From Octopus vulgaris (taxonomy: Eukaryota), in assembly GCA_951406725.2 (NCBI GenBank), contig OX597840.1, forward strand, positions 39,990,001 through 40,054,000: DNA of 64,000 nucleotides. Direction: 5' to 3'. Positions 5,479 through 61,142 of the stretch are shown here, one piece after another (position 1 is the stretch's first letter; every line of letters begins with the position of its first letter). Made by a program: the position numbers and the translations under genes. The notes beneath the pieces are model-generated. The model was not told the DNA's origin, made no database searches, and saw only the letters and a program-made list of their open reading frames with translations.

Positions 5479-6371
5479 CGTGCGTGCCTATGCATACATG
5501 CATGTACGTATGTATGTATTTATGTTTGTATTTATGCATGTGTATGTATGTATGTATGTATGTACGTATGTATGTCATTATCGTTGAAATAGGTGGTATT
5601 TAGTGTTATCTAATTGGCGTTATGTGTTCAAATCGTATCATGGTTGATTATACATTTCACCCTTCTGGGGACCGACAAAATAAAACACCTATAGGAAAAG
5701 GGAGAGAGGGGGAGAGGGAGAGGGAGAGAAAGAGTTTATACCTCGCCGCTCAATCTGCCAAAAAAAAGCAGCCATATTTGTCTTCAAAGTCACATAATGA
5801 TACATTGATAATGTAGACCAAACGGATTAACACGCCTGGGAGCTAAACAGCACAAATAGATAAGAAATAATCAAGAGCAGGGATTAACTAAGCCCCTATC
5901 ACAGAACATGTAGCATCATCACTTCTTTGTCTCTTGTATTACATGTGAATGGTTTCAAAACGACAATATGGCGGTTTCGGCTCCGTTTACCTTTGCCCCA
6001 CGCTTGAACCGATATCTGTATTTCTCTCAGAATTGTATTTCTTTATTAACTGTATTTATTGTTAATTATCTAACCGTCTTATTTTTTGTTGTTAATTGTA
6101 TTTCATCGTTAACTATTTCTTTTGTAAAAACTATTTCGTTAATTTCGATAATAATGGTATTTCGTTGATAAATATGTTTCGATCTTAATTTCTTTGCATT
6201 GTTAAATATATTGCTTTTATCAACTTCATTTCATTGTTAGATACAATTCTTTTGTTAATCATATTTCGTTGTTAAATATATCGATTTTTTAAAATCGTAT
6301 TTGCTTCTGAATTGCACTGCATTATTAAATATATCTTTGTTAATTGTATTTCGTTTGTTAATTGTATTTAC

Positions 6372-6569
6372 TTACTCTTTTACTCTTTTATTTGTTTCAG
6401 TCATTTGACTGCGGTCATACTGGAGCACCGCCTTTAGTCGAGCAAATCGACACGAGGACTTATTCTTTTGAAGCGTAGTACTTATTCTATCGGTCTCTTT
6501 TGACGAACCTCTAAGTTACGGAGATGTAAACACACCAGTATCAGTTGTCAAGCGATGTTGCGGGTACAA

Positions 6570-6653
<84 letters not shown>

Positions 6654-6806
6654 GACGGGCTTCTTTTCAGTTTCCGTCTACCAAATCCACTCACAAGGCT
6701 TTGGTCGGCCCGAAGGTATAGTAGAAGACACTTGCCCAAGGTGCCACGCAGTGGGACTGAACCCAGAACCATGTGGTCGGTAAGCAAGTTTCTTATCACA
6801 CAGCCA
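6372..6806 (-). mobile_element. SINE family A, near full length, internal (TA)n
   Basis: Head with B-box GGTTCAGTCCC, core GGCACCTTGGGCAAGTGTC, tail with AAGAGTA repeats. Confidence 0.9.
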
Positions 6807-7629
6807 ATTTTATTAATTACATTTCATTGCAAAGTAAATTACTTTTATTAATCTGTTTAGATTTCATCTTATATATATATTTTTTTTTTTTTGCTAATTG
6901 CAATTTCTTGTAAATTATATTTCTTGTCTCAAATGAATTTCGATGAAAATTGTATTTCGCTGTTAATCATAACCATTTTCTTAATTATATTTGTTATTAA
7001 TATTTTTTCACTGTTAAATATATTTCGTGACTTAATTGTATTTCGTTGTCGTTTTTTTTTTTTTTGTTAAACGTATTTCGTTGTTCATAGCATTTTGTGG
7101 TTAATTATAATTCATCGTTAACTGAATTTCAGTTTTATTTATCTCACTTTTGTTAATAACATTTTATGTCAATTGTATTTGTTAGGAAATTCTTTTTCTT
7201 CTAAACTGTTTTCAAACCAACAACCAGCATGTGTTCGGCAGCGGAATTAATCTATCAAACCACCAGTTGACAGCCAAATACTATCCGTACACAGAGATAG
7301 ACATTAAATTCATAATTTAGAAGAATATCGCCTTTTTATACGGGAAATATTGTATCACTTTGTATAAAATATTTTTTCGTTTTCCAACGGGGTAACGCCA
7401 TTGTAGGGTGGTGAGAGCGGAGTGCTATGCTGAAAGTAAAGCTAGGTTAGGAGGAATGAACAGGTGAAGGGAAGTGATACTTGAGAAGTTAGGAATTGGC
7501 GATGGGGAAACCAGAAGCTAAGAACGAAAGATGGCAGGATTGAACAATGAAGAAGAAACGTTGGAAAATGTAGAAAAATAATAAATTTTAAAATGACGAG
7601 AAGCTGAAGGAGTGTGAAAGGGTCAAATA

Positions 7630-8033
7630 TATTCTTTTCTACCCTAGGTACAAAGCCCGAAATTTATGGGGAGGGGGCCAGTCGATTAGATCGACCCCAG
7701 GGGACGCAACTGGTACTTAATTTATCGACCCCGAAAGATTGAAAGGCAAAGTCGACCTCGGCGAATTTTGAACTCAGAACGTAGCAAAAGACGGAATACC
7801 TATTTCTTTACTACCCACAAGGGGCTAAACATAGAGGGGACAAACAAGGACAAACAAAGGGATTAAGTCGATTATATCGACCCCAGTGCGTAACTGGTAC
7901 TTATTTAATCGACCCCGAAAGGATGAAAGGCAAAGTCGACCTCGGCGGAATTTGAACTCAGAACGTAAAGACAGACGATATACTGTTAAGCATTTCGCCC
8001 GGAGTGCTAACGTTTCTGCCAGCCCGCTGCCTT
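7630..8033 (-). mobile_element. SINE family B composite: head-body-tail1-body-tail2
   Basis: Two bodies (GAGTTCAAA..GAGGTCGACTTTGCCTTTCA); the first ends in TAGTAAAGAAATA, the second in the alternative tail CCCCATAAATTTCGGGCTTTGTACCTAGGGTAGAAAAGAAT. Confidence 0.85.
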
Positions 8034-8277
8034 AATGATCTAATATATTACATGATCAGTGAACAGGGAGAAGCTCTTTGAGAATCTTCGTTTGAAAATC
8101 CCAGAAAGTAAATTTTTCTTTTTAAATTTTCAAAAGTTCAAAATTTCCAACGATTTTTTTTTTTTTTTGCTGAGATGCACCAACAATTTACACTTTTAAT
8201 TGAGACGAGAAGTATTTGGAGTTCTTTGGTGAGAATAAAATCATTATTCCTATGTTCAATATATAACACTGCATAAG

Positions 8278-8491
8278 TCGCCGACCTGGTAGAAATGATA
8301 GAACGCCGGGCGAAATGCTTAGCGATATTTCGTCTGTCTTTATGTTCTGATTTCAAATTCCGCTGAGGTTGACTTTGCTTTCATCCTTTCGCGGTCGATA
8401 ATTTATGTGCCTGTTGCGTATTGGTGTCGATGTAATCGACTGGCCCCATTCCCCAAAAATTTCGGGCGTTGTGTCTTGAATAGAAAAGAAT
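8278..8491 (+). mobile_element. SINE family B (tail-2 variant)
   Basis: CGCCGGGCGAAATGCTTAGC...CATCCTTTCGCGGTCGATAA...AATTTCGGGC...TAGAAAAGAAT. Confidence 0.8.
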
Positions 8492-8541
8492 GTATAACTT
8501 TGCATACATAATGGAATCCACGTAAAGTTTAATATCGTATA

Positions 8542-17616: not shown

Positions 17617-17829
17617 ACGTTAGATGACACGCGAAATGCGTAGCCGTATTTCGTCTGCCGTTAAGTTCTGAGTTCAAATTCCGCCAAGGTCGACTTTGCC
17701 TTTCATCCTATCGGGGGTCGATGAAATAAGTACCAGTTTCGCATTGGGGTCTATGTAATCGACTTAATCCCTTTGTCCGTCCTTGTTTGTCCCCCTCTAT
17801 GTTTAGCCCCTTGTGGGTACTAAAGAAAC
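17617..17829 (+). mobile_element. SINE family B (tail 1) within (GAT)n
   Basis: Body plus tail TTTAGCCCCTTGTGGGTACTAAAGAAA. Confidence 0.85.
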
Positions 17830-17834
17830 AGATA

Positions 17835-22811: not shown

Positions 22812-22863
<52 letters not shown>

Positions 22864-23074
22864 ACTACTCAAAAGGGGCTAAACACAGAGGAGACAAAGG
22901 GATTAAGTCGCTTACAAAGGGATTAAGTCGCAAAGGGATTAAGTCGCACCCCAGTGCGTAAGTGGTACTTAATTTATCGACCCCGGAAGGATGAAAAGCA
23001 AAGTCAGCCTCGGCGGAGCATAACACCGCTAGGCATTTCGCCCAGCGTGCTAACGATTCTGCCAGCTCGCCGCC

Positions 23075-23075
<1 letters not shown>
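22620..23075 (-). mobile_element. SINE A tail fragment (22620-22810) and deleted SINE B (22860-23075)
   Basis: GACTGCGGCCATGCTGTAGCACC; ATTCTGCCAGCTCGCCGCC head; triplicated ACAAAGGGATTAAGTCGC. Confidence 0.75.
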
Positions 23076-23106
<31 letters not shown>

Positions 23107-35395: not shown

Positions 35396-35438
<43 letters not shown>

Positions 35439-35440
35439 TT

Positions 35441-35498
<58 letters not shown>

Positions 35499-35499
<1 letters not shown>

Positions 35500-36163
35500 T
35501 TTTTTTCTTCTTTCAAATTTGCTTTCATTTCTTGCCGAGTGTCTTCCCGACTCCTAGGGCAAAGAAACTCATACTATACATTGGTAGGCCATTAAACCAA
35601 ACTCAATAGTTTGTTCATTTTTTTTTTTTTTAAGTTAAATTAAAATACATGGGCAGCAACAGATCTCGCATCGACAATGCTCTTCTCAATACGTGTGATG
35701 TACCAGTTAAGACAATCTTTTGCACTTCTTGCAGGGATGGTAAGCCAGGGATCATTCTCATATAATTTTCGGTTCCCTTCTTGATCATTCCTAGTGCTCC
35801 TACGATCACTGGTATTGTAACCGCCTTGAGATGCCACATTTTCTCAATTTCAATGAGTAGGTCTTTATATTTTCTGAGCTTGTCAAACTCTTTCGCTGAG
35901 ATATTATAATCACAGGGGATGCTCATGTCGATCAATAAGCAAACTTTATTGTTTTGGTCTTTCACAACAATATCTGGTTTATTGGCCTTGATGGTTCGGT
36001 CTGTATGTACTGGAAAGTCCCACAGAATCGTTACATTTTCTCCTTCAGTTACAGCCTCAGGGTGGTGATTATACCACTTTTCGGCAGTTTTGATATTGTA
36101 ATGCCGACTTATTAGCCAGTGTAGATATTGGCCAACTCTGTCATGTCTTAATTTATACTCCAC
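35499..36163 (-). mobile_element. R4/Dong-like non-LTR retrotransposon, 5'-truncated, RLE endonuclease frame intact (35630-36163)
   Basis: RHDRVGQYLHW...ILWDFPVHTDRTIKANKPDIVV...LIDMSIP...K.RKYKDL..EIEKMW...IPVIVGALG is a PD-(D/E)xK RLE signature; (TAA)n on both sides. Confidence 0.9.
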
Positions 36164-36578: not shown

Positions 36579-36787
36579 TACTATTATTACTATCACCATT
36601 TTTATCCTATCTCCATTTTATCCTTTCCGGGTTGATTCAATAAGTACCAGTTGAGCACTGGGGTTGATGTAATCGACTTTCGTCCTACACACCCGAATTG
36701 CTGGCCTTCAAATTATGAAATCATCGTTATTATTGTTCTTATTGTTGTTATTTTGTTGTGGTTGTGGTTGTTGTTGCTGCTGTTGCT

Positions 36788-40393: not shown

Positions 40394-41257
40394 GATATAA
40401 TTATAAATACACACACATACATATATCGATACAGATATACATACATATATGACATATAAATAAATGAATGTGCGTGTGTGTGTTTGTGTCAATTGGCAGT
40501 ATCTCGAAGTAAAGATGAGCAATAAAGAAACTTTTAATCAGTTCAAATGTTTATGGAGGAAATGTCCAGGTACGAAATGGTGTTTACTGCAATTAACCGC
40601 GGAGAAAGAAGTTTCACTCACAGGAAAAAAAGTGTATGTACAGTATTAGCTTCTTTAATTACACCAGATTTCCATTTCTGGTCCGATCCTTCGTCGTCTT
40701 CAATATAAATAAGAATTTTTTTTCTGTAGTGAAATTGCCTTTAAAAGGAGAAATAAGTTGCAAAGACATTTGAACGAACTTACCTTCTGTTTGTTATTTT
40801 GTTTTTTCTTATGTTCGCTGCTTCTTTTAGTCCAAATGAATAATTAGGAATTATTGATTTCTTAGAAACTTGAGTCTTTATGTCAGCTCAGATTTTCCTC
40901 CCTTTGTTATCCCTTACTGATGACGACAAAAGAGTCAGAAATGTAGATCACATTTGAAAACCCAGAGGGAGAAATTTCAGGAGGAAATCTTGTGTGAAAA
41001 ACTTTTACCTATAAGTGAAAACAATTCTTTTTTTTTTTTTTTTTGCTCTACGAAAAATGTGGTGAAATCGACTTTAGAATATGAAATATGTCCTAAATAT
41101 ATTTGAACTAAATTTTATGTGTTTGTGTGTGTGTGTTATAATACATGTATTTGTCTGTGATTGTATTGATTGATAGATACTGCATATATCTCTAAATACA
41201 TATACGTGTGTGTGCTTTTTCTGTGTGTGTATATTTATAGGGTGTGTATATATATAT

Positions 41258-41620
41258 ATGGCTCCAGGTTTAGTCCCACTGCGTGACACCTTGGGCAAGT
41301 GTCTTCTACTATAACCTTGGGCCGACCAAAGCCTTGTGAGCGGAAACTGAAAGTAGCCCGTCGTATATATGTATATATGTACATGTGTGTGTGTGTATAT
41401 GTTTGTGTGTCCGTGTTTGACCCCCACCCACAGTGCTTGACAAACCATGCTTGTGTGTTTACGCCTCCGTAACTTAGTGGTTCGGCAAAAGAGAACGATA
41501 GAATAAGTACTAGGCTGAGCGAGAATAAGTCCTGTGGTCGATTTGGTCGACTAAAGGCGGTGCTCCAGCATGGCCACAGCCAAATGACTGAAACAAGTAA
41601 GAGAGTAAAGAGTAAGAGTA
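41258..41620 (+). mobile_element. SINE family A, 5'-truncated
   Basis: Core CCTTGGGCAAGTGTCTTC; tail CAAGTAAGAGAGTAAAGAGTAAGAGTA. Confidence 0.85.
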
Positions 41621-42675: not shown

Positions 42676-43198
42676 ATTTTGTCCCAACCAAGGCTTGAGG
42701 TTACTGTAGCGTAAGGGGTTACAACCAAGGAAAAGGAGGGTCTCGAATATTCAAAAAATGTCAATTTGGAGAAAGATTAAGGGACTGAATATCATAGTCC
42801 ACAAGAAAACAAGAATTGGTAGTGAGTTCCAGCGAGCAGCGGTTCGAAGAAAGAAGCTGTTAGACTAAAAATGCTTACGGCTATCAAGAAGCTCAACAGA
42901 GAGGTGATATGACTGGGGAGGGAACTGAGGAACGAACACATTTAAAAGGACTGACAGGAACAACTAGACAAAAGTCCATCTGGGCAATGACCAGGGGGAA
43001 AATAATGAGAAAGAAACAATAAACATCCGTTTCTCCCTAGTAGAAAGAAGAGGACCCAGCATGTAAACAGGTCGATTGTAAATTCGACCAAGCAAGTTTA
43101 GACAATTAGGGAGCGCAGCGGCTTAAGGATTTCGTCAATACACAATACGAGTTCATATCGTGGCCTTACAGGGATAGAAGGTCTTCTCAGGTGTACGA
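42676..43198 (-). pseudogene. CR1/L2-group LINE 3' remnant
   Basis: Degenerate translation includes SNSFFLRTAARWNSLP and TPEKTFYPCKATI; possibly continues past the SINE B dimer to about 43700. Confidence 0.65.
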
Positions 43199-43614
43199 AA
43201 GGCGGCGAGCTGTCAGAGACGTTAGCACGCCGGGCGAAATGCTTAATGGTATTTCATCTGCTGTTACCTTCTGAGTTCAAATTCCGCCGAAGTCGACTTT
43301 GCCTTTCATCCTTTCGGGGTCGATTAAATAAGTACTAGTTATGCACTGGGGTCGATACAATCGACTTGATCCGTTTGTTTATCCTTGTTTGTCCCCTCTG
43401 TGTTTAGCCCCTTGTGGGTAATAAAGAAATATGTATTTCGTCTGCCGTTACGTTCTGAGTTCAAATTCCACCGAAGTCGACTTTGCCTTTCATCCTTTCG
43501 GGGTCGATTAAATAAGTACCAGTTACGCAATGGGGTCGATAAAATGGACTTAATCCGTTTGTCTGTCCTTGTTTGACCACTCTGTGTTTAGCCCCTTGTG
43601 GGTAGTAAAGAAAT
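43199..43614 (+). mobile_element. SINE B head-[body-tail1]x2
   Basis: Junction AATAAAGAAATATGTATTTCGTCTG; imperfect TSD GGTGTACGAAA / AGTCTACGAAA. Confidence 0.9.
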
Positions 43615-44281
43615 AAGTCTACGAAATTCGCGCGCACCGAAGATAGGTCTAATGCAGTGTAATATAGACATAGCCTAAGACGATTTTATTCTAGATTCAA
43701 CACATTTTTCATTCAAGGTTTTCCACGTGATCAGTGGACAAAAGAAAAAAATGTAAAACTAAGCTAGACTCGGTAAGATTCGAACTTAGAAGTGAGAGGA
43801 TGAAGGTAAGTAGCGAAAACTAATTTACCTCAATAATGTTGAGCCCAGCAAAACATTTCTTCCATACGACAGCAACTTCTATTTAATTCAATGCGACGTT
43901 GAAGATTAGATTTAACATCAGCAGGATTAAGTTTAGCAGGTATGAATTTTTCAAGGGGTCAGCTTCGGTCCCAACATATATACCACCATGCTTCTTAATT
44001 GGTCAATTATATTACACAACGGTAAGGAGAGGTAATCAGAGGGGAAAACTACCTTAAGTTTTTTACTTCTTTCATTCATTGGAGTACAGCCGACTAGTGT
44101 ACCATCTTTAAGGGCTTCGTCAAGCAAATCGACCCCAGCACTTGTCTGGTACTTAATCTATCGGTGTCTTTGACGAAATGCTATGTCACAGGGATATAAA
44201 GAAACCAACACCGGTTATCAAGCGGTGGTGCTCAGAGAAATACAATCAGAAATTCACGCATACACGTGTACACGCGCACGC

Positions 44282-45925: not shown

Positions 45926-46225
45926 TAAAATCACTAATACTTTTAAGATTATCTCTAGAGATTTTCTGGAAAATTTTTATCGCTTGCACTGAAAGTTACA
46001 GTGATTCGTTTACGAATGAGTCCATGTAAACAGAGTAATCGAAGATAGAAAATTTGGTAATGAGTGTATATGCATATTTCGGGGGTTATTATTGTTTCTT
46101 CAGTACTGCATCTAACTATCCACGAAGGAATTACTTAATAGCCACTGACTTTAGTGGTGTAACACTATTGGCTGAACCAGTTTACATATTAAATACACCC
46201 CCGTCCACTGGTATTTACATATTGA

Positions 46226-46458
46226 AAAGGCGGCGAGCTGGCAGAAACGTTAGCGCGCCGGGCGAAATGCTTAGCGGTATTTCGTCTGCGTTACGTTGTG
46301 AGTTCAAATTCCGCCGAGGTCGACTTTGCCTTTCATCCTTTCGGGGTCGATAAATTAAGTACCAGTTACGCACTGGGGTCGATGTAATCGACTTAATACC
46401 TATGTCTGTCCTTGTTTGTCCTCTCTGTGTTTAGCCCCTTGTGGGTAATAAAGAAATA
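46226..46458 (+). mobile_element. SINE family B, full length, perfect 16-bp TSD
   Basis: TSD GGTATTTACATATTGA at 46210-46225 and 46459-46474. Confidence 0.92.
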
Positions 46459-47267
46459 GGTATTTACATATTGATTTCTATTTTTGTTAGAAGGCCTCCA
46501 AGTTCAGGAGAGGGGACAGGTCACTTATATCGACCCCATGGCTCGTCTGGTGCATACTATATAGGCGGGATTTGAACTCCAAACTTAATTTCTATGTTAC
46601 TAATTGCTGGTAGATACACCGTGCTTCGCTTTGCAATCACAAAATACTACCATATATTTGGTTATATATTACGGTTGCAAAACTACATACGGCGTTCCTA
46701 CCAGCAATTAATATCACTAATAAGATACAGCAATTAATATCTACCAGCAATTAATATCACTAATAAGATACAGGACAAAGAATATTATTGAATGGAGAAA
46801 GTGTGAGTCGGAGAACAACGACGGGAAGAACCGGAAGCAGTTCTCAATGTAGAGAGACATGCATATACCCACAGATGTGCATCGATGAGATTGCAGAACG
46901 AGAGAAGACAAGACTTGGTTCCAGTCTGGAAGTGAAGCAGAGAATATTCCTGAAAGGAGTTTATAAGTGAAGTGACTATATACAGAGTGTGAAGTAGAAA
47001 GAAAGCTGGAAATTGTGAATAGAGGAAAAAATTAAAATTTGGAGGATAGAATTCTTGCTCGGTGTTTTTCAAAAACGCAAAAAAATAAAATGAATGAGAT
47101 GGATTTCTGGCTTTGAATAAAAAAAAAAAAGGAGTCTTGAAGAAAGAGACCGGAAGAATGATCTTGGGACCAAAATAAGATGCCAGGAAAACTGGGAATA
47201 GACGTAGCGCAGAAGACATGTTTATTATATTTCGTTTTTGGATTTGGTTTGCAAGATTCTTTTAAGA

Positions 47268-47847: not shown

Positions 47848-47852
47848 ATTTA

Positions 47853-48083
47853 AGGCGGCGAGCTGGCAGAAACGTTAGTGCGCCGGGCGAAATGCTTGGC
47901 GGTATCTCGTCTGCCGCTACGTTCTGAGTTCAAATTCCGCCGAGATCGACTTTGCCTTTCATCCTTTCGGAATCGATAAATTAAGTACCAGTTACGCACT
48001 GGGGTCGATGTAATCGACTTAATCCATGTGTCCGTCCTTGTTTGTCCCTTCTGTGTTTAGCCCCTTGTGGGTAGTAAAGAAAT
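47853..48083 (+). mobile_element. SINE family B, full length, tail 1
   Basis: AGGCGGCGAGCTGGCAGAAACGTTAG...GGGTAGTAAAGAAATA. Confidence 0.9.
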
Positions 48084-48236
48084 ATATACATATTACATAT
48101 TTATTTATATGTACATACTGCAGTGGTTTCAAGAACTGGTTAATCTCTAAAATATAATAAACACTATAACAATCCATATAACAGGCATTTATTGAACAGT
48201 TGAGACCATTGTGCTATTTCGTTTTAATTGACATGT

Positions 48237-49397
48237 GGCGTATGAGTGGCTGTGTGGTATGTAGCTTGCTTACCAGCCACATGGTTCCGGGTTCCGTCCC
48301 ACTGCGTGGCACCTTGGGCAAGTGTCTTCTACTATAGCCTCGGACCACCCAAAGCCTTGTGAGTGGATTTGGTAGGCGGAAACTGAAAGAAGCCCGTCGT
48401 ATATATATGTATATATATGGTTCAGTTCCACTGCATGGCACCTTGGGCAAGTGTCTACTACTATAGCCTCGGGCCGCTCAAAGCCATGTCAGTGGATTTG
48501 GTAGGCGGAAACTGAAAGAAGCCCGTCGTATATATATGTATATATATGGTTCAGTTCCACTGCGTGGCACCTTGGGCAAGTCTCTTCTACTATAGCCTCG
48601 GGCCGCTCAAAGCCATGTCAGTGGATTTGGTAGGCGGAAACTGAAAGAAGCCCGTCGTATATATATATGTATATATATGGTTCAGTTCCACTGCATGGCA
48701 CCTTAGGCAAGTGTCTTCTACTATAGCCTCGGGCCGCTCAAAGCCATATCAGTGGATTTGGTAGGCGGAAACTGAAAGAAGCCCGTCGTATATATATGTA
48801 TATATATGGTTCAGTTCCACTGCGTGGCACCTTGGGCAAGTGTCTTCTACTATAGCCTCGGGCCGCCCAAAGCCATGTGAGTGGATTTGGTAGGCGGAAA
48901 CTGAAAGAAGCCCGTCGTATATATATGTATATATATTGTTCAGTTCCACTGCATGGCACCTTGGGCAAGTCTCTTCTACTATAGCCTCGGGCCGCCCAAA
49001 GCCTTGTGAGTGGATTTGGTAGGCGGAAACTGAAAGAAGCCCATCGTATATATATGTATATATATGGATCAGTCCCACTGCGTGGCATCTTGGGCAAGTG
49101 TCTTCTACTATAGCCTCGGGCTGCCCAAAGCCTTGTGAGTGGATTTGGTAGGCGGAAACTGAAAGAAGCCCATCATATATATATGTATATATATGGTTCA
49201 CTCCCACTGCGTGGCACCTTGGGGAAGTATCTTCTACTATAGCCTCTGGTCGCCCAAAGCCGTGTGAGTAGATTTGGTAGGCGGAAACTGAAAGAAGCCC
49301 ATCGTATATATATGTATATATATGGTTCCATTCCACTGCATGGCACCTTAGGCAAGTCTCTTCTACTATAGCCTCGGGCCGACACAAGCCTTGTGAG
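48237..49397 (+). repeat. SINE A-derived tandem array, about 129-bp unit, about 9 copies
   Basis: One SINE head followed by repeats of GGTTCAGTTCCACTGC...GAAAGAAGCCCGTCGTATATATATGTATATATAT. Confidence 0.95.
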
Positions 49398-50027
49398 TCT
49401 CATAATAACTGGCATTTAGTTCACAGATTTTTAGCGGATTATAGTCTTCCGTATCTGCACATTTCCCCTTTTGGAATTTTTGGAACGTTTTACAAGATTC
49501 TTACATTGGCCAGCTTCTATTTACATTTAATTCTTCAGGATATCTTCCAGCATTCGTTGTTTGTGTTATTATCTGGTCCTTATCTAAATCGTATTGATTT
49601 TGTTAACTGAAATACAATGTATTCTGTGTTGTATCCTATTGTATATTTTAATATAAATCGTTGTTCGAAAAAAGAGCTGTTAAAACACGTTATAATATAC
49701 AACGCGAAACGACACAAAAAGAGAAAAATAAATATTAATTGCTTGATACAACGATTCTATAAGAATTCCAGAAATTATTAACAGAAGATTAGCAATGGAC
49801 ACATTATGTGTGTGTGTGTGTGTGTGTCTGTGAATGTGTATGTGTGTGTGTGTGTGTGTGTGTCTGTGAATGTGTATGTGTGTGTGTGTATGTGTGCGTG
49901 TGTCTGCCTGTGCATATATATACATAAGTATATGTACATGTACATGCATATATATTTATATACATACACGCACGCACACACATATATATATATATATAAA
50001 TGCATTTATATATATACATATATATAC

Positions 50028-55925: not shown

Positions 55926-55994
<69 letters not shown>

Positions 55995-56023
55995 TAGATA
56001 GACAGACAGACAGATAGATAGAC

Positions 56024-56113
<90 letters not shown>

Positions 56114-56179
56114 CGATAGATAGATAGATAAGAAGGTAGGTAGGTAGGTAGGTAGGTAGATGGATAGATAGATAAATAA

Positions 56180-56211
<32 letters not shown>

Positions 56212-56220
56212 GTAAATATG

Positions 56221-57147
56221 TTTCTTTATTAGCCACACAGGGCTGCACACAGATAGAACAAATTACAAGGTAGAGCTTTTCTTTTGAATGTTTAAAAAAA
56301 AAAAAAAAAAAAAAAAAGTAAGGGGGAGTTTCGATCAAAAGGGATCGTAAAAGGAGAGAAGGAGGACAAAAAAAGGGGGTTAAAAAAAGGGGGAGAGGAA
56401 AAAAAAAAAAAAAAAATTGATCAATAGGGATCGTTATCACAGAAATGTCAATATGAAGTGTAAAGGGGAGGACAGGTGAGGTTTACCCGTGGAAAGAAAA
56501 GCCTACGGAAAAGACCACGGTAACCTCGGTCAATGAAGTCACATTTTATATTTCTTTTTTTTTTTTTTTTTTTTTTTGCAAATAAGCAACTCTCTGTTTT
56601 CGATTTCTGGGTTCATAGGACTATGCTCAAGGTGGCTTCGTCATTCATACGTGCCATTCTTGCTACATTCACCCATCTTTTTTTAAAACATTCGCTAGAC
56701 AAAACTTGCCTCTCTACTCTCACTTTCCTTTTCAAGTGGTACTTGAAGAAGTTGATGAGAGATTGACCAGAGAGGAAAGTGTTTGTCTCCAATCCTTTCA
56801 GACGCGTCCACCAGATACATTCTTTCGCCATAGCCACAAGGATGATGAAAATAGCTCTTCCTTCCCGTTTGAAGGAAGGAGGCGTGACAATATTGACGAT
56901 AGACTCAGCTGATAAACCGACTCGTCCCACACGTGACAGCAGTTGTTCGACATAAGCCCACAGGTCGGAAATTGTTGGACACTGAACGAGTGCGTGCAGA
57001 ACGGTTTCGTCGCTCTGACCGCATCTCGGGCAGGTCGGCCCCGTGTTTCTCGAGCCGTGTCTGTAGAGCTTATCCCGAACGGGTAGCGCTTCTCGGTAGC
57101 ACTGCCAGGCCAGGGATCTCTGGAAGTTGTCCATGGGCCCTGGCCCA
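56221..57147 (-). mobile_element. Tx1/L1-clade LINE, 5'-truncated (ORF2 C-terminal zf-RVT region plus 3' UTR), within (GATA)n
   Basis: SLAWQCYREALPVRDKL...CPRCGQSDETVLHALVQC....LW...IWWTR, stop at 56613; T-rich 3' UTR ending AATAAAGAAA. Confidence 0.88.
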
Positions 57148-57152
57148 GATAA

Positions 57153-57208
<56 letters not shown>

Positions 57209-57278
57209 GAAGGTAGGTAGGTAGGTAGGTAGGTAGGTAGGTAGTGGATAGACAGATTGATAGATAGATAAATAAATA

Positions 57279-57390
<112 letters not shown>

Positions 57391-57449
57391 GAAGGTAGGT
57401 AGGTAGGTAGGTAGGTAGTGGATAGACAGATTGATAGATAGATAAATAA

Positions 57450-57559
<110 letters not shown>

Positions 57560-60246: not shown

Positions 60247-60280
60247 AGTAATGTACATAATACCTCATCACTAAAATATA

Positions 60281-61142
60281 TATCGACCCCAAAAGGATGA
60301 AAAGCAAAGTCGACCTCGGCGGAATTTGAACTCAGAACGTAACGGCGGACGAAATACCTATTTCTTTACTACCCACAAGGGACTAAACACAGAGAGGACA
60401 AACAAGGACAGACCAAGAGATTAAGTCGATTATATCGACCCCAGTGCGTAACTGGTACTTGTTTAATCGACCCCGAAAGGATGAAAAGCGAAGTCGACCA
60501 CTGCAGAATTTGAACTCAGAACGTAACGGCAGAAGAAATACCTATTTCTTTACTACCCACAAGGGGCTAAACACAGAGGGGACAAACAAGGAAAGATAAC
60601 GGATTAAGTCGGTTACATCGACCCCAGTGCGTAACCGGTACTTAATTTATCGACCTCGAAAGGATGAAAGGCAAAGTCGACCTTGGCGGAATTTGAACTC
60701 AGAACGTAACGGCAGAAGAAATACCTATTTCTTTACTACCCACAAGGGGCTAAACACAGAGGGGACAAACAAGGAAAGATAACGGATTAAGTCGGTTACA
60801 TGGACCCCAGTGCGTAACCGGTACTTAATTTATCGACCTCGAAAGGATGAAAGGCAAAGTCGACCTTGGCGGAATTTGAACTCAGAACGTAACGGCAGAA
60901 GAAATACCTATTTCTTTACTACCCACAAGGGGCTAAACACAGAGGGGACAATCAAGGACAGACAAACGGATGAAGTCGATTACATCGACTCCAGTGCGTA
61001 ACTGGTAATTAACTTATTGACCCCGAAAGGATGAAAGGCAAAGTCGACCTCGCCGGAATTTGAACTCAGAACGTAGCGGCAGACGAAATACCGCTAAGCG
61101 TTTCGCCCGGGATGCTAACGATTCTGCCAGCTCGCCTCCTTA
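60281..61142 (-). repeat. SINE B tandem array: head plus 4 body-tail units (about 183 bp) plus partial body
   Basis: GAAATACC at about 60351, 60535, 60718, 60901 and 61086; only the last continues into the head. Confidence 0.95.

Follow-up and report, generated by a model that had tools for sequence, protein, structure and literature searches.

A 64-kb window of Octopus vulgaris DNA (the whole stretch that was analyzed) contains a LINE copy whose last nucleotides resemble the tail of an interspersed SINE. This raises the question of whether the two elements form a SINE/LINE pair, to which group of LINEs such a partner would belong and whether this very LINE family or a relative of it would copy the SINE. 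Tail exchange and LINE-derived tails are an established pattern (PMC5786205, PMC3747384); here and below, statements on published systems refer to the parts of each paper that were consulted.

The LINE copy and its flanks

The LINE, a member of the L1/Tx1 group as judged below, lies on the reverse strand at 56219..57146 (928 bp) and is truncated at its 5' end. Its coding part is the C-terminus of ORF2 (56613..57143, reverse strand), which stays open for 176 codons up to the stop and includes a zf-RVT zinc domain (PF13966, E 1.9e-8, above the cut-off). A tblastn search with P0005, a longer relative, covers 57146-56616 at 70.6% identity. The ORF2 stop is followed by a UTR of ~390 nt, which closes with AAAGAAACA (56219) amid (GATA)n repeats. 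The upstream portion of this UTR (56271..56612, reverse strand) contains long A/T runs and shows no likeness to the SINE body (best local score 16). Its terminal portion (56219..56270, reverse strand) is the stretch in common with the SINE and contains a predicted 4-bp hairpin (56244-56231) and an AATAAA motif (56230-56225), without poly(A). Since its end carries AATAAA, the LINE RNA may be polyadenylated.

The window is rich in microsatellites, and (GATA)n/(GACA)n repeats occupy the 3' side of the LINE (55929..56218) and (GATA)n repeats its 5' side (57147..57556). A possible 9-bp target duplication with one mismatch flanks the element. The window contains 19 instances of this 9-mer pattern, seven of them in the GATA array and its junctions, and we do not rely on this duplication because of its recurrence in the array. 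No second copy was found in the 64-kb window, and the LINE is represented at the sequence level by this one copy.

The LINE and SINE tail 1 end in register

In a local alignment, the LINE end (56270-56221, reverse strand) and the SINE tail at 46410-46456 yield 39 identities across 49 columns and a single 3-nt gap, and BLASTN within the window returned 80.4% identity over 56 columns (E 1.3e-8). Both termini run in register at AAAGAAA(C/T)A, and poly(A) is absent in the window after the LINE end as well as after all 11 SINE tail-1 ends. The observation in an earlier note on this DNA of about 80% identity over about 45 nt, with a common end point, is thus borne out by alignment and register. The tail match that it reported is real, although the letters that it quoted for 46410-46456 are those of the copy at 43383-43429, from which the 46410 copy differs by one letter. 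The LINE 3' end itself probably lies 2 nt beyond 56221, at 56219.

Over the last 35 nt, compared without gaps, the LINE is identical to ten SINE tails at 27-29 positions. The tails 1 differ mutually by a mean of only 1.3 of 35 letters, and five fixed sites within this stretch separate the LINE from all ten of them; the LINE reads AATAAA and most SINE tails AGTAAA. The match spans the last ~49 nt of the 66-nt tail 1 module and lies wholly inside it, the first ~17 nt of the module being without a match in the LINE.

The similarity also exceeds that of shuffled T-rich controls, which the earlier note had named as a possible refutation. When the last 75 nt of the LINE were dinucleotide-shuffled 3000 times, the observed score was never reached for nine of the 11 tail-1 copies, the exceptions being the SINE copy ending at 17828 (2 of 3000) and the degraded copy at 22857 (53 of 3000). 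With a score of 50, the LINE end is the top match outside the SINE copies, and unrelated sequence scores at most 27 (5114 segments of 75 nt, both strands).

One SINE body carries three tails

The SINE is a non-coding, interspersed element of ~232 bp, and its tail-1 copies are 88-93% identical. Full-length copies with tail 1 lie at 46227..46458 (forward; shared part 46410-46458), bounded by a perfect 16-bp target duplication (46210-46225 and 46459-46474), and at 47850..48084 (forward). Composite copies comprise a dimer with two tail-1 ends at 43431 and 43615 (43198..43615, forward), an array in which four units end in tail 1 and a fifth is partial (60278..61142, reverse) and a dimer whose first unit has tail 1 and whose second has tail 2 (7630..8034, reverse). 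A 5'-truncated copy with tail 1 sits within a (GAT)n run (17631..17830, forward) and a degraded one within (TA)n (22857..23078, reverse). The same body bears tail 2, which is without a LINE match, at 8274..8492 (forward), and a body fragment bears a third tail at 36616..36722 (forward).

Thirteen tails follow a common body word, of which ten are tail 1, two are tail 2 and one is tail 3. Tails 1 and 2 both close in an AAAGAA-like word. Tails 2 and 3 (7630-7679, 8442-8492 and 36679-36722) match no LINE end in the window, so further partner LINEs are predicted for them. Neither ARAGORN nor Rfam detected a tRNA. An A-box-like word is present in four of five SINE heads; a strict B-box pattern was found in none of the five, and a B-box-like word with one mismatch can be seen by eye. 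An automatic search for target duplications gave a clear result in one of nine elements and a plausible one for the dimer at 43198, the remainder being repeat-driven or negative.

The dimers and the array (43198-43615, 7630-8034 and 60278-61142) always restart near element position 52, at GGTATTT, and six of the 11 tail-1 ends are such restart junctions. The target duplication of the solitary SINE at 46227 opens with the same seven letters. These restarts could be due to self-insertion, template jumping or read-through master copies.

Two further elements of the window may be mentioned here. A tandem array with a 129-bp unit (48247-49398) is related to a second interspersed repeat (e.g. 6371-6813 and 41255-41616). 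In addition, a 177-codon frame on the reverse strand (35400-36163) ends in (TAA)n; Pfam gave nothing significant for it, and we take it to resemble the restriction-like endonuclease end of an R4/Dong element.

The terminus is found across the LINE family

We examined contigs of four sequencing runs (X2, X3, X5 and X13) on 56196-57165 at 88% likeness, leaving out run X1 as a possible source of the window. The four runs stem from three studies with three organism labels; X2, X3 and X5 are DNA runs. Relative to the median over 15 ORF bins, the summed contig depth of the tail bin, which is not a copy number, was 1.68-fold in X2, 1.60-fold in X3 and 0.86-fold in X5. Among the variants listed (40 of 60), the SINE-type letter appeared at one of the five diagnostic sites, 56246, at 9.5, 6.8 and 4.6% in the three DNA runs. 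With this single site at no more than 9.5% among those variants, the tail depth is mostly not made up of SINE contigs. As the depth belongs to the LINE form, a locus-specific SINE remnant is unlikely. The concern raised earlier, that an adjacent SINE fragment supplied the terminus, was thus addressed by contig depth rather than on full-length copies and is not upheld (0.9-1.7 times ORF2). Taken together, a ~50-nt tail shared by the SINE and an L1/Tx1-group LINE family is real and holds at the level of the family.

No contig in the four runs spans from the ORF to the tail, homopolymer stretches having been skipped, and the link between ORF and tail in other LINE copies is for this reason only inferred. 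Zero depth at 56295-56426 reflects these skipped repeats and not absence, and one joint links 56241 to 56610 (one contig each in X2 and X5). Loose contig ends at 57146, seen in three runs, go on as more LINE sequence. At 56253 (32, 33 and 28 contigs; agreement 0.64-0.72), the loose ends begin SINE-like and then follow the upstream sequence of the LINE itself. They suggest that some LINE subfamily is closer to the SINE, though they may also stem from a mixture of SINE and LINE contigs.

In run X13, which we presume to be RNA, the tail bin at 56229-56261 is 30 times as deep as a median ORF bin, and the LINE-type letter accounts for 98%. As contigs cannot show an RNA level, we regard this as a weak hint of transcripts that end at AATAAA.

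A coding lineage of the L1/Tx1 group

Among the listed ORF2 variants (40 of 60 listed overall) that reached at least 3% in a DNA run, nine rarer ones being set aside, 25 of 30 are synonymous compared with 23% expected (p 5e-12). This bias points to a lineage that codes for protein and whose several subfamilies are under selection, rather than to a passive chimera. Relatives of the ORF2 protein were found at 63-76% identity; the window ORF is 63% identical to a protein of Argonauta hians and 97% identical to an Octopus bimaculoides gene model over one fifth of its length, as expected for DNA of an octopod.

The LINE was classified by proxy. P0005 reaches 172-174 bits with human L1 ORF2p and 63-88 bits with R2, the only two clades among its matches, and relatives at 40-45% identity to P0005 show PF03372, PF00078 and PF13966, i.e. 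the order endonuclease, reverse transcriptase, zinc domain. Judged by these bit scores and by the domains of its relatives, the LINE is a member of the L1/Tx1 group. The earlier designation as Tx1-like thus stands for the group, supported also by the zinc domain, and Tx1 itself is only suggested, namely by GATA-like flanks and by CCHC knuckles upstream in distant relatives. CCHC knuckles in ORF1 characterize Tx1 elements and are not known from vertebrate L1. ORF1 of the octopus LINE lies outside the window; in distant lancelet and sea-cucumber relatives, five of the eight proteins examined have three or more such knuckles. The protein search returned no named Tx1 protein among its matches, and an NCBIfam search was uninformative for the LINE. 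The genome, viral and metagenome contig collections that were scanned yielded neither related LINE loci nor matches to a degenerate tail pattern (0 matches).

Two ORF2 fragments at 67% identity to the LINE, P0007 and P0014, are filed under Herbaspirillum sp. and likely represent cephalopod host DNA in a bacterial assembly. Large clusters of full-length ORF2 at ~40-45% identity to P0005 (P0015-P0112), which come from ENA assemblies with contigs of up to hundreds of kb, form the nearest lineage outside cephalopods.

Stem-loop and target sites

The earlier note had proposed that the two elements would share a covarying stem-loop. Across nine sequences, none of 11, seven and seven pairs changed on both sides, a comparison of low power because the SINE rows barely vary. 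Folding was no better than that of shuffles (0 of 8 folds, z-scores of +0.25 to -1.26), and the predicted 4-bp hairpins of LINE and SINE lie one letter out of register. A shared covarying stem-loop was thus not observed, and on this ground we do not count the elements among the stringent SINE/LINE pairs.

Common target sites, a further expectation of that note, are not visible either: the LINE lies in GATA repeats, and none of five independent SINE tail-1 ends does. The target duplication measures 16 bp in one SINE copy versus possibly 9 bp for the LINE. GATA-like flanks also adjoin the LINE at five further 5' truncation points (56656, 56718, 56840, 56853 and 56899), found among the 12 of 55 joints listed, and 26-42% of the tail depth carries over into the 3' flank; such joints are callable only for flanks like the given one and yield no fraction. 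A preference of the LINE family for GATA repeats is therefore only suggested. GATA-like repeats appear to flank other LINE copies too, and an L1/Tx1 family targeting (GATA)n is not among the targets named in the consulted part of PMC4494074.

A model for the pair and its alternatives

The case for a pair draws on the tail match and its location at the 3' end of each element, on the missing poly(A) in these copies, on the depth that the LINE form reaches across the family, on the synonymous bias of the ORF2 variants and on the three tails of one SINE body. We consider it reasonably probable that a template switch or a recombination event brought tail 1 from the LINE lineage to the SINE and that the ORF2 protein of a lineage member starts reverse transcription on this tail, the driver being a sister subfamily. 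Modular anatomy and known pairs argue for the direction of transfer, from LINE to SINE, and for an ORF2 protein that would recognize the shared end instead of poly(A). The driver would be a sister or older subfamily, as five letters of the window's LINE differ from every SINE tail. These fixed differences, together with the lack of GATA at five SINE ends, would make the GATA-associated family of the window a sister of the driver and not the driver itself.

The transfer may have run the other way, in that an ancestor of the LINE captured a short piece of tail 1, of SINE or third-LINE origin, as its 3' end, and the true driver of the SINE belongs to another clade such as CR1, L2, RTE or R4/Dong. 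The SINE is far commoner in the window (11 tail-1 ends compared with one LINE end), targets are not visibly common to both elements, and the AATAAA of the LINE could act as a signal for polyadenylation, most SINE tails having AGTAAA at this place. Moreover, CR1, RTE and Dong-R4 families are reported to have been active recently in O. vulgaris (PMC13282606, Table 1). However, the LINE UTR contains no SINE body, the match is restricted to an exchangeable tail module, the loose ends hint at a gradation of LINE variants towards the SINE, and tail 1 finds no match in the window's R4/Dong-like end. We therefore regard capture by the LINE as fairly unlikely.

A relaxed mode of recognition is another alternative. 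Mammalian L1 reads poly(A), and the LINE-derived tail of the octopus SINE could similarly be a relic or a short priming sequence of which a relaxed ORF2 protein reads only the A-rich last letters. This would agree with the lack of covariation and of unusual folding, with the AAAGAA-like ending common to tails 1 and 2 and with the ~20% divergence between LINE and SINE tails. The near-uniformity of the SINE tails (a mean of 1.3 differences in 35 letters) and the missing poly(A) after 11 SINE ends and the LINE end speak against such relaxed reading, which we judge to be about as unlikely as capture by the LINE. Even further down in our estimate, and very improbable, is the notion that a decayed SINE fragment merely adjoins one LINE copy, or that the match arose by chance among T-rich sequences. 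It would fit the single LINE copy in the window and the ORF-tail interval unbridged by contigs. Yet, the shuffle results oppose it, as do the depth of the LINE form at family level in runs of three organism labels, the low share of the SINE-type letter (at most 9.5% at the one diagnostic site listed), the fixed differences from the SINE and the intact ORF next to the terminus.

A broader version of the transfer from LINE to SINE can be put forward tentatively, as a possibility on which we would not bet: a Tx1-clade lineage may have driven a main wave of octopus SINE expansion through a 50-nt tail other than poly(A), with GATA-targeting and more broadly targeting sister families sharing this tail.

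Comparison with known systems and implications

Shared tails as a class of mechanism are well known. In stringent pairs such as UnaSINE/UnaL2 of the eel (PMC3747384), the last tens of nucleotides are likewise common to SINE and LINE in register; the pairs treated in that review have tested or covarying stem-loops, whereas the octopus tails show no covariation. Its Table 1 (Ohshima 2013) holds 58 pairs with L2/CR1, RTE, Vingi, I, Crack and Rex1 as animal partners; it contains neither a Tx1 partner nor a mollusc, and its L1 pairs come from maize, sorghum and Chlamydomonas. The closest parallels are maize ZmSINE2/ZmSINE3 with LINE1-1_ZM and Chlamydomonas SINEX-3_CR with L1-1_CR (Ohshima 2012, PMC3472496), which also combine an L1-group LINE, a shared end of ~50 nt and a predicted hairpin. 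In contrast to the octopus elements, these are found in plants and an alga, show compensatory changes and, in the algal pair, end in poly(A).

Within the Tx1 clade, crocodilian SINEU is thought to be mobilized by Tx1-clade elements, with Tx1-Mar as its counterpart (Kojima 2015, PMC4494074). That mobilization was inferred from shared targets for a SINE ending in poly(A), and no Repbase LINE was similar to the 3' half of SINEU-1, whereas in octopus the tail is shared and the targets visibly are not. Insertion into simple repeats is described there for the Tx1 families Kibi, (TC)n, and Koshi, (TTC)n, and for crocodilian families, (TTCC)n/(TTTC)n; the octopus repeat differs, being (GATA)n, and the preference for it is only suggested.

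The SINE of the window is probably already catalogued, either as OK/OR1/OR2 (Ohshima and Okada 1994, as cited in PMC4824008 and PMC4758252) or within the tRNA-Core and tRNA-Deu classes of octopus annotations (PMC8967140). A partner LINE for octopus SINEs is not named in the consulted parts of PMC8967140, PMC4758252 and PMC4824008. For O. vulgaris, PMC13282606 reports recent activity of 13 L1-Tx1 families and, in the part consulted, names no SINE/LINE pair; nor is a pair of this kind named in those of PMC3531059, PMC5786205, PMC5753468, PMC5381603 and PMC10294476. The term 'TX1' in the consulted text of PMC4176376 denotes mutant names and not the clade. In the literature thus covered, no shared-tail pair came to light for Tx1 or for the L1 group in animals; subscription papers, Repbase, Dfam and SINEBase fell outside this scope and may hold the link. 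The octopus elements probably form a SINE/LINE pair whose kind is known and whose partner clade is unusual; the habit is rarely reported for L1-type elements.

From three plant and algal pairs, Ohshima (PMC3472496) proposed that stringency was the original state of the L1 group and was lost along parallel lines in mammals and in plants. The test would be extended to animals by an L1/Tx1 pair in which SINE and LINE have a tail in common and no poly(A). If the proposed recognition of the tail holds true, an animal L1-group element would have kept sequence-specific RNA recognition, which would offer a natural comparison with the recognition of poly(A) by human L1. SINEs account for ~40% of the transposon content in octopus (PMC8967140) and, in O. 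vulgaris, for 11.6% of the genome (PMC13282606), and the lineage described here would be a candidate engine for octopus SINEs.
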